Program-made: the position numbers and the translations under genes
The notes under the pieces: model-generated
Database searches by the model: none
What the model saw: the letters and a program-made list of their open reading frames with translations, nothing else
What the model was told of the DNA's origin: nothing
Shown here: piece after piece, positions 258-5,574 of the stretch
Layout of the letters: each line of letters opens with the position of its first letter
How positions within the stretch are numbered: position 1 is the stretch's first letter
Virus record (IMG/VR): IMGVR_UViG_2734482555_000001
DNA from: a virus
Lineage: Duplodnaviria > Heunggongvirae > Uroviricota > Caudoviricetes
DNA: 16,673 nucleotides
Reading direction: 5' to 3' (one strand)

Positions 258-668
258 TTAGTGCGGAAATATTTGTGTAGTGTTCTGTATGTTCTCAGTA
301 AAGAGTAATGAATTATCAAAGGTATAGTAATACCTTTTGTTTTCGTGGATATTTGTAATCCATCTGAAAACCCCTGCTGTAGCAAGATTTTTCCTGTATT
401 CGTAAAATGATAACTCTCCTGATTTGAATCCTTTTAAGGTGGCTTCTATAAGGCATTTATTTTTTGAAAATCTTACATTTACAACCTTACCCTGTCCTTT
501 TATTAAAACCGTATTATCGTTTTCAAGAACAAGATGAATATTCTCTGTGGCTAAATAGTAAATGTAATGTGAGACATTGTGACGTTTTAGTTCAGAATAA
601 AACCAGTGATAGTTTAAATTATTTCGCACTTTATCGAATATTTGTTTAAAAATGGCAACCTGAGCCAT
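258..668 (-). CDS. AT-rich accessory (moron-type) protein, about 136 aa; probably the DUF1398/YbcV-like protein found in the right-end region of lambdoid phages
   Basis: Open frame 258-683 on the minus strand. The second in-frame ATG (668) has a GGAAGG Shine-Dalgarno-like motif about 7 nt upstream; the first ATG (683) has none. GC is roughly one third by eye, against over 50% in the structural genes. Family assignment is from my recollection of lambda/DLP12 homologues and is unverified. Confidence 0.7.
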
Positions 669-725
669 TGTAGTACCTTCCATGTGATATGAGGGGGCGT
701 AGTCTGCACGATTATCTAAATTGCT

Positions 726-959
726 TCAATCTGGTCTAACCTGTTTTCTGAGCAATTCAGTAATGTCACTCTTTTCTTTGTTTGCTTCAGGCGAAACTCT
801 TTTTTCTGAGCACAGTCTCCGGCGGCAGGCTTCAATGACCCAGGCTGAGAAATTCCCGGACCCTTTTTGAACAAGAGCGATGTTAATTTGTTCAATCATT
901 TGGTTAGGAAAGCGGATGTTGCGGGTTGTTGTTCTGCGGGTTCTGTTCTTCGTTGACAT
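726..959 (-). CDS. Small DNA-binding protein, 77 aa, with a ribbon-helix-helix-like core (NIRFPNQMIEQINIAL...FSAWVIEACRRRL) after a basic Thr/Arg-rich N-terminus; probably YlcI/YnfO-like
   Basis: Minus-strand ORF with ATG at 959-957, ending 43 nt upstream of the next minus-strand gene. The strand-helix-helix residue pattern is typical of Arc/CopG-type repressors. The family name is recollection, not a search result. Confidence 0.65.
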   Translation of the reverse strand: MSTKNRTRRTTTRNIRFPNQMIEQINIALVQKGSGNFSAWVIEACRRRLCSEKRVSPEANKEKSDITELLRKQVRPD

Positions 960-1152: not shown

Positions 1153-1176
1153 GTTACGGGGCGGAAGGCGCGCGGG
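1153..1176 (+). other. cosN, the terminase nicking site; predicted 12-nt cohesive end GGGCGGAAGGCG (1159-1170)
   Basis: The flanks TTACG and CGCGGGTTTTCGCTATTTATGA match the lambda cos junction. The 12 nt between them differ from canonical GGGCGGCGACCT at five of the last six positions. Confidence 0.75.
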
Positions 1177-1347: not shown

Positions 1348-1867
1348 ATGGAAGTCAACAAAAAGCAGCTGGCTGACATTTTCGGTGCGAGTATCCGTAC
1401 CATTCAGAACTGGCAGGAACAGGGAATGCCCGTTCTGCGAGGCGGTGGCAAGGGTAATGAGGTGCTTTATGACTCTGCCGCCGTTATAAGATGGTATGCC
1501 GAAAGGGATGCTGAAATTGAGAACGAAAAGCTGCGCCGGGAAGTTGAAGAACTGCGGCAGGCCAGCGAGACAGATCTCCAGCCAGGGACTATTGAGTACG
1601 AACGCCATCGACTTACGCGTGCGCAGGCCGACGCACAGGAGCTGAAAAATGCCAGAGACTCCGCTGAAGTGGTGGAAACCGCATTCTGTACTTTCGTGCT
1701 GTCGCGGATCGCAGGTGAAATTGCCAGTATTCTCGACGGGATCCCCCTGTCGGTGCAGCGGCGTTTTCCGGAACTGGAAAACCGACATGTTGATTTCCTG
1801 AAACGGGATATCATCAAAGCCATGAACAAAGCAGCCGCGCTGGATGAACTGATACCGGGGTTGCTGA

Positions 1868-1893
<26 letters not shown>
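1348..1893 (+). CDS. nu1: Terminase small subunit (gpNu1), 181 aa
   Basis: ORF begins MEVNKKQLADIFGASIRTIQNWQEQGMPV, the lambda Nu1 N-terminal winged-helix sequence. It lies just downstream of cosB. Confidence 0.95.

Positions 1894-5574
<3,681 letters not shown>

Follow-up and report, generated by a model that had tools for sequence, protein, structure and literature searches.

What do two small minus-strand genes do beside the cos site of a lambda-like phage, and do they act together? The question is raised by positions 258 to 959 of a 16,673-nucleotide (nt) stretch of Caudoviricetes DNA (IMG/VR record IMGVR_UViG_2734482555_000001), which we call the window and which comes from the left part of the genome of a lambda-like phage. 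A gene of the ynfO/ylcI family (DUF3950; 726-959) encoding 77 amino acids (aa) is followed there by a gene of the ydfO/ybcV family (DUF1398; 258-668) encoding 136 aa. An original prediction, made from the letters alone, had taken the first product for a ribbon-helix-helix (RHH) regulator and likened the cassette to an autoregulated effector or toxin-antitoxin operon. In our reading, to which we give a probability of roughly 70%, these are two separate, non-essential accessory genes in the arrangement known from prophage Qin, located in the variable stretch that separates the lysis genes from cos. The cassette itself is already known and annotated; it is the function of YnfO and YdfO that is uncharacterised.

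Two known gene families in a Qin-type arrangement

Both open reading frames (ORFs) are found on the minus strand at 726-959 and 258-668, as originally predicted, and the two lambdoid families to which they had been assigned, YlcI/YnfO-like and DUF1398/YbcV-like, are borne out by a Pfam search that puts both above the cutoffs. The 77-aa ORF matches PF13132 (DUF3950) with 72.8 bits (cutoff 25, E 2e-20), a profile also matched by all 46 diverse family members that we aligned, and NCBIfam NF041551 (YlcI_YnfO_N) with 35.2 bits (cutoff 30). It is identical to YnfO of E. coli K-12 at 75 of 77 residues, and a comparison with BP-4795 reveals coding constraint, 16 of the 26 base differences within the first 50 codons being at third positions. 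The DUF1398 ORF matches PF07166 with 147 bits (cutoff 22, E 3e-43) over profile positions 1-119 of 119, and PDB entry 2HH8, the nuclear magnetic resonance structure of E. coli YdfO, with an E value of 1.4e-69 over residues 1-140. The remark that the cassette is under-characterised rather than new also holds good: the Prokaryotic Genome Annotation Pipeline already labels both genes in thousands of genomes, and our literature search found no paper assigning a function to either.

The second gene is AT-rich, as had been noticed, with a G+C content of 31.4% against 44.4% for the DUF3950 gene and 53.7% for the window. Its ORF extends over 258-683 (minus strand) and could encode 141 aa from the first ATG; translation from the second ATG of the same frame, at 668, would yield 136 aa. 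Read from the sequence, a Shine–Dalgarno (SD) motif, GGAAGG at 676-681 (minus strand), precedes the ATG at 668 by 7 nt; when the start sites are aligned it is invariant in the window, lambda, DLP12, Qin and one further locus (L118), in keeping with the SD motif originally proposed for the 136-aa gene. The upstream ATG (683 in the window) is out of frame in lambda and DLP12. Because of the invariant SD motif and the loss of frame we take 136 aa to be the real product, and the ATG at 683 is probably not the start. The distance between the genes had been counted as 43 nt; it is 57 nt to the start of the 136-aa protein, or 42 nt to the ATG of the 141-aa form.

In the K-12 prophage Qin the order is nohA-ynfO-ydfO, on the same strands and with the same 57-nt gap, and positions 220-1400 of the window are colinear with Qin at 90% identity (blastn). 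Qin ynfO (b4533) and ydfO (b1549) thus share order, strands and spacing beside a Nu1 homologue with the window cassette, which is a Qin-type ynfO-ydfO arrangement; Qin YdfO, the protein of structure 2HH8, is ~75% identical to the DUF1398 protein of the window. The window differs from Qin, a decayed prophage, in running on into plus-strand ORFs past Nu1 and A and in carrying a variant cosN. Of 5426 complete E. coli genomes, 5211 carry DNA that matches positions 1-1350, at a median of four places each. The exact 77-aa protein is indexed in 8495 blocks of the assembly collection and stands between Nu1 and DUF1398 in all six of the places listed. Little therefore depends on this particular window, since the cassette is present in nearly every E. 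coli genome and already has its names.

A first scan of viral contigs returned near-identical loci only and no diversity. The lambda region is also carried by dozens of 'genomes' ascribed to unrelated taxa (Pseudomonas, Kitasatospora, Flavobacterium, Cohnella and others) and by many ~3.5-kb contigs (loci L096-L132, besides many ENA proteins), the DUF1398 protein of these short contigs matching the query as closely as that of lambda itself (76%). Contamination with lambda control DNA, inflating the taxonomic spread, is the most likely explanation, and genome matches that were probable lambda contaminants were set aside.

Independence of the two genes

A type II toxin-antitoxin system is a conserved, co-occurring pair, tightly coupled in an operon and including a known toxin family. 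Here, by contrast, tblastn detects DUF3950 in 155 phage records and DUF1398 in 43. In BP-4795 and Stx1_699 a DUF3950 gene without DUF1398 is flanked by Rz and by an HNH/TerS/TerL module of another type, with a strong SD motif and with a terminator-like hairpin and T-run after the gene. Phage 434 has DUF3950 without a cos-proximal DUF1398 and bor follows, while in JLK-2012 other genes follow. In the satellites examined that resemble phage-inducible chromosomal islands (PICIs), DUF3950 stands alone and antisense within the string of genes from alpA to primase, here too with a strong SD motif and a terminator-like hairpin. Conversely, a genome scan with the DUF1398 alignment found ~35 diverged loci (28-53% identity) in Citrobacter, Klebsiella, Kluyvera, Pseudocitrobacter, Salmonella and Escherichia, among them K-12 ycgX beside bluR; no DUF3950 ORF lies within 4 kb of any of them, and their neighbours are unrelated chromosomal genes.

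Even where both genes are present they can be far apart. According to the blastn breakpoints, positions 89-742 and 797-1400 of the window match lambda/DE3 and DLP12, and the 54 nt in between (743-796, minus strand), a mosaic joint, stand in place of 613 nt of lambda (3154-3766 of the lambda locus, L002) that carry the plus-strand gene lambdap79/ybcW. The order in lambda and DLP12 is bor - lambdap78 (ybcV) - lambdap79 (ybcW) - ylcI homologue - cos - Nu1, lambdap78 being the DUF1398 gene of lambda. Order and orientation of the two genes towards cos are those of the window, and the flanking DNA is 83-95% identical; however, in these phages an opposite-strand gene parts the two, which are ~680 nt apart, and their DUF3950 protein has 64 aa and a tail unlike that of the window. 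In lambda this 64-aa YlcI/YnfO homologue lies at 48109-48303 on the minus strand (3735-3929 of L002), between lambdap79 and cos. No feature is entered for it in NC_001416 or J02459, although some other records annotate it, a reminder that phage lambda and K-12 share two genes without a function, one of which the lambda reference annotation omits.

The tail of the DUF3950 protein bears on the same question. The N-terminal 49 residues are almost invariant, while the sequence past residue 49 is wholly different among variants. In the 77-aa protein the mosaic joint encodes most of this variable C-terminal tail, and the final codons of the tail, reading QVRPD and stop, coincide with the palindrome GGTTAGACC that belongs to the upstream block of DUF1398. 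Since the tail is hypervariable and ends within the PdhR box of its neighbour, we regard it as a by-product of recombination rather than as a conserved partner-binding domain.

These findings make it improbable, at odds of about one in ten by our judgement, that the cassette is an autoregulated two-gene operon in which an RHH protein represses or neutralises a DUF1398 effector, type II toxin-antitoxin systems included. Each gene is common without the other, and the presumed antitoxin would have a hypervariable tail partly encoded by the promoter block of its neighbour. Tight operon coupling is likewise not what we see, because a promoter-like element belonging to DUF1398, conserved with the rest of its upstream block, occupies the 57-nt gap, an opposite-strand gene intervenes in lambda, and neither gene matches a toxin or defence family (nothing significant in PADLOC, no Pfam toxin match, no invariant residue of catalytic type in DUF1398). 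A ybcV::kan strain exists in the Keio collection. The two genes look independent rather than like a dedicated paired system, and YnfO and YdfO are best treated in testing as separate genes, not as a pair.

The gene that the window lacks, lambdap79, is a small late-strand gene. According to a 2026 preprint it activates the Vulcan NADase system, and the lambda-vir escapers of this system, which are viable, all delete lambdap79, 'likely through recombination with the Qin prophage' (bioRxiv 10.64898/2026.09.04.749371). Lambdap79 has also been scored 'essential' by CRISPR interference (CRISPRi) (PMC10695390); we suspect that this score reflects polarity from a roadblock to late transcription, which the same study describes as an artefact for other lambda genes (PMC10695390). 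A window without lambdap79 has the Qin layout, and the locus presents itself as a live hotspot of recombination and immune evasion. The polymorphism in the form of the cassette has a known selective consequence, albeit by way of lambdap79, which is absent here.

The DUF1398 gene and its upstream block

Conservation among the window, lambda, DLP12, Qin and one further locus extends over ~75 nt upstream of the DUF1398 start, a block with a palindrome GGT(C/T)AGACC, a GATAAT -10 element and the SD motif. In the window the palindrome GGTTAGACC (741-733) resembles a PdhR box and overlaps a -35-like TAGACC, with the -10 element GATAAT at 716-711. The resulting promoter-like element (711-741, minus strand), delimited by conservation and by its match to the sigma-70 consensus, spans the last codons and the stop of the DUF3950 ORF and is, as a consensus match only, the best on the minus strand within 640-1200.

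Published data make a role of the host plausible. The palindrome of ybcV/ybcW and ynfO>ydfO is a target of PdhR in genomic SELEX (systematic evolution of ligands by exponential enrichment), and a pdhR mutant has 10-fold less ybcV mRNA (PMC7660256). Overexpression of T4 MotB, in work on repression that depends on H-NS, raised ybcV and ybcW more than 1000-fold (PMC7827196). Ionic liquid strongly induces ydfO (PMC4077768), a report cited there stating that YdfO overexpression raises oxidative-stress resistance, and ydfO responds to DicC expression (PMC11430063). As DUF1398 would bring its own upstream block, consisting of the PdhR-box palindrome and the -10 element, its expression should be mainly under host control, with activation by PdhR as reported and silencing by H-NS, which we only infer.

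The gene behaves as an AT-rich moron, to judge from its deviant base composition, its own promoter-like element and its presence or absence between conserved flanks; it is missing in BP-4795 and from the cos-proximal region of 434. It would have been inserted downstream of ynfO in a subset of phages. With lambdoid morons such as bor it shares these properties as well as dispensability, but no terminator was detected after it. The original comparison with the antisense layout of bor and lom is apt for bor, which is antisense; lambda lom, on the other hand, is co-oriented with the late genes, so that of these two bor alone fits. The left flank of the insertion is a conserved block at 90-200, defined by blastn and by the promoter annotation of HK629. 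In lambda this block is bor-proximal, upstream of bor, with a promoter-like site annotated in the HK629 record, and its counterpart in BP-4795 lies near Rz and the DUF3950 gene (blastn).

The 136-aa product is basic and rich in aromatic residues, lacks a hydrophobic segment and, by its sequence, is soluble. With 189 cluster representatives at an E value of at most 1e-3 among 1.84 billion, this is a small family, and its alignment has invariant L27, T41 and G99, none of catalytic type, in agreement with the earlier remark that no catalytic motifs are seen. Residues 17-58 and 85-126 align weakly with each other (hhalign E 0.007), which suggests an internal tandem duplication with a unit of one helix and three strands. 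In PADLOC-DB nothing significant was found, the sole match being Csx23 to DUF1398 (E 0.025, 12.6 bits) and DUF3950 giving none; Pfam toxin families matched neither gene, and no catalytic or defence signature was found in these searches. An assignment to the HEPN RNases was considered and rejected, the match to HEPN_AbiA_CTD being below threshold (15.8 bits against a cutoff of 27, E 0.014) and R29/H34 (RHNVSH) not being conserved in the family. We also do not adopt the labels 'head protein' (phrog_413, RefSeq/PHROG) and 'putative envelope protein' (older records), given that there is no hydrophobic segment and that lambda forms plaques normally on CRISPRi knockdown of lambdap78. In the published screen, plaque formation was unchanged, with efficiencies of plaquing of 1.9 and 1.3 (PMC10695390); ydfO is listed as essential by transposon-directed insertion-site sequencing only. 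YdfO would accordingly be pictured as a soluble cytoplasmic protein acting alone, with no enzymatic signature and dispensable for lytic growth.

YnfO and the cos-proximal region

What stays constant at the locus is DUF3950, of which a second subfamily (33-47% identity) occurs widely in Klebsiella, Salmonella, Serratia, Yersinia, Dickeya and other Enterobacterales. The 77-aa product has a pI of 10.9 and no hydrophobic segment. Its sequence follows the RHH pattern, in that a basic arm leads into an alternating strand motif (N-I-R-F-P), after which come two helices joined by a GSGNFS turn; IRFP ... GSGNFS is conserved across the family, and R16, F17, P18, F37, S38, W40, V41 and C45 are invariant in both subfamilies. 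In the AlphaFold2 monomer residues 1-18 are extended and helices are predicted at 19-32 and 34-52, with a predicted local distance difference test (pLDDT) score of 86-88; the RHH beta-strand cannot form in a monomer model. Small size, basic N-terminal arm and alternating strand motif (N-L-R-W-P in Arc) followed by helix, G-x-(S/N) turn and helix are features that YnfO has in common with Arc, Mnt, CopG, ParD and MazE6/7.

The 'clear RHH pattern' of the original prediction stands as far as the pattern and the predicted helices go, but it is not joined by a significant match to any RHH protein. Pfam RHH models remained silent on the 46 DUF3950 members even at E 10, with no RHH family recurring, PDB profile searches with the DUF3950 alignments gave no RHH match, and Foldseek gave no match with the YnfO model. 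With hhalign the DUF3950 alignment met P22 Arc in the expected register at a borderline E of 0.016, while Mnt and CopG gave no match. The comparison with RHH repressors and antitoxins should therefore be understood as 'works like' only. Taken together, pattern and helices make an RHH fold plausible, likely but unproven, and YnfO is probably a dimer-forming, RHH-like DNA binder. Its gene would be transcribed leftwards, away from cos, by way of a promoter that is weak or depends on a factor, and the small, very basic protein could bind DNA in a local regulatory or autoregulatory role. An AT-rich inverted repeat, ATCAATTAATACG-7-CGTCATAATTGAT, found by repeat search at 1029-1061, 70-100 nt upstream of the DUF3950 start, is a possible operator; its conservation is uninformative because the lambda-type loci aligned do not vary in this region.

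Several points weigh against the reading of two separate accessory genes and against the roles that we attach to them. Lambdoid DUF1398 genes (at least 70% identity, with enough upstream flank) have a same-strand DUF3950 gene upstream, L118 being the sole exception, which is equally well explained by shared cos-proximal linkage. We found no intrinsic terminator between the two genes or after DUF1398 (downstream of 258), so that co-transcription by read-through from ynfO into ydfO may occur. No convincing sigma-70 promoter was found in the window upstream of the DUF3950 gene, and expression in the lysogen is a prediction from orientation. No significant sequence, profile or structural similarity links YnfO to an established RHH family. 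The structure predictions that had been proposed came out well for the helices of the 77-aa monomer and poorly for the 136-aa protein, whose AlphaFold2 model, built on a 28-sequence alignment, reached a pLDDT of 49 and therefore permits no functional inference from the fold.

Among the alternatives, the one to which we would give most credit, while still considering it unlikely, makes DUF3950 an overlooked, conserved small DNA-binding regulator, acting on late or induced transcription or on the adjacent accessory-gene slot. If true, the locus would hold a regulator whose antisense position is fixed both at the lambdoid lysis/packaging junction and in the alpA-to-primase string of satellites, beside a slot that can hold lambdap79, the Vulcan trigger.

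Another alternative, which we rate as improbable as the two-gene operon, has DUF3950 control the late operon or packaging (read-through, use of cos or prophage silencing), either as a DNA binder or as an antisense transcription unit at the lysis/packaging junction, with DUF1398 as a bystander. Position and antisense orientation of DUF3950 are indeed kept upstream of the packaging module with two terminase types, and in the PICI-like satellites the antisense gene within the alpA-to-primase string is preceded by repeated motifs. However, in HK97-type Shiga toxin (Stx) phages an HNH gene lies between DUF3950 and cos, no operator-like motif is common to the DUF3950 subfamilies, and the position may simply reflect a recombination hotspot. 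We know of no lambda packaging or late-gene defect that maps to 48109-48303. In two of the satellites (L161, L163), where the DUF3950 gene occupies 5001-5204, the upstream sequence at 4915-4987 holds three copies of GGTGTACCCyCAC, two direct and one inverted, and the annotated opposite-strand coding sequence of 324 aa that overlaps the gene looks spurious.

Least credible of all is a function of one or both genes in superinfection exclusion, anti-phage defence or anti-defence: the variable accessory region also holds bor, KilA-N/Ant genes and lambdap79, morons there commonly have such functions, lambdap79 in the same slot of lambda triggers Vulcan, and weak sub-threshold matches to HEPN_AbiA_CTD (E 0.014) and Csx23 (E 0.025) exist, but PADLOC returns nothing significant, the Rx4H motif under the HEPN match is not conserved, enzymatic motifs are missing and diverged DUF1398 members are single genes in ordinary chromosomal neighbourhoods.

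The small terminase gene Nu1 (1348-1893, plus strand; from the ORF list and annotated homologues) diverges from the cassette and is followed by the terminase A gene (1868-3793, plus strand) and a long series of plus-strand ORFs. Both cassette genes are opposite in strand to all of these and hence antisense to the late operon, as had been predicted. On the other side, a 69-aa minus-strand ORF at 3-212, downstream of DUF1398, matches PHROG 20197 at its C-terminal end only and looks like a gene remnant; positions 1-89 have no blastn match in the closest phages.

Between the cassette and Nu1, a plus-strand promoter-like site at 1096-1123 (GTGACA-16-TATCAT, 10/12) is oriented towards cos and Nu1 and is overlapped by a perfect palindrome, ATGATAAT-T-ATTATCAT, at 1107-1123. 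In this region Rfam gave sub-threshold matches to microRNA families only, at the cosB hairpin (1262-1329). Alignment with lambda-type cos regions and the cos annotation of the 434 record place the cohesive-end position cosN at 1159-1170 (plus strand), which is the start of the late/packaging module and from which the cassette points away. The 12-base cohesive end is GGGCGGAAGGCG in the window and GGGCGGCGACCT in lambda, Qin, DLP12 and 2H10, so that 5 of the 12 bases are changed with respect to the lambda form while the flanks are identical. The cosN 30-mer of the variant form occurs in 7 of the 174 loci retrieved for comparison, and the lambda form in 65.

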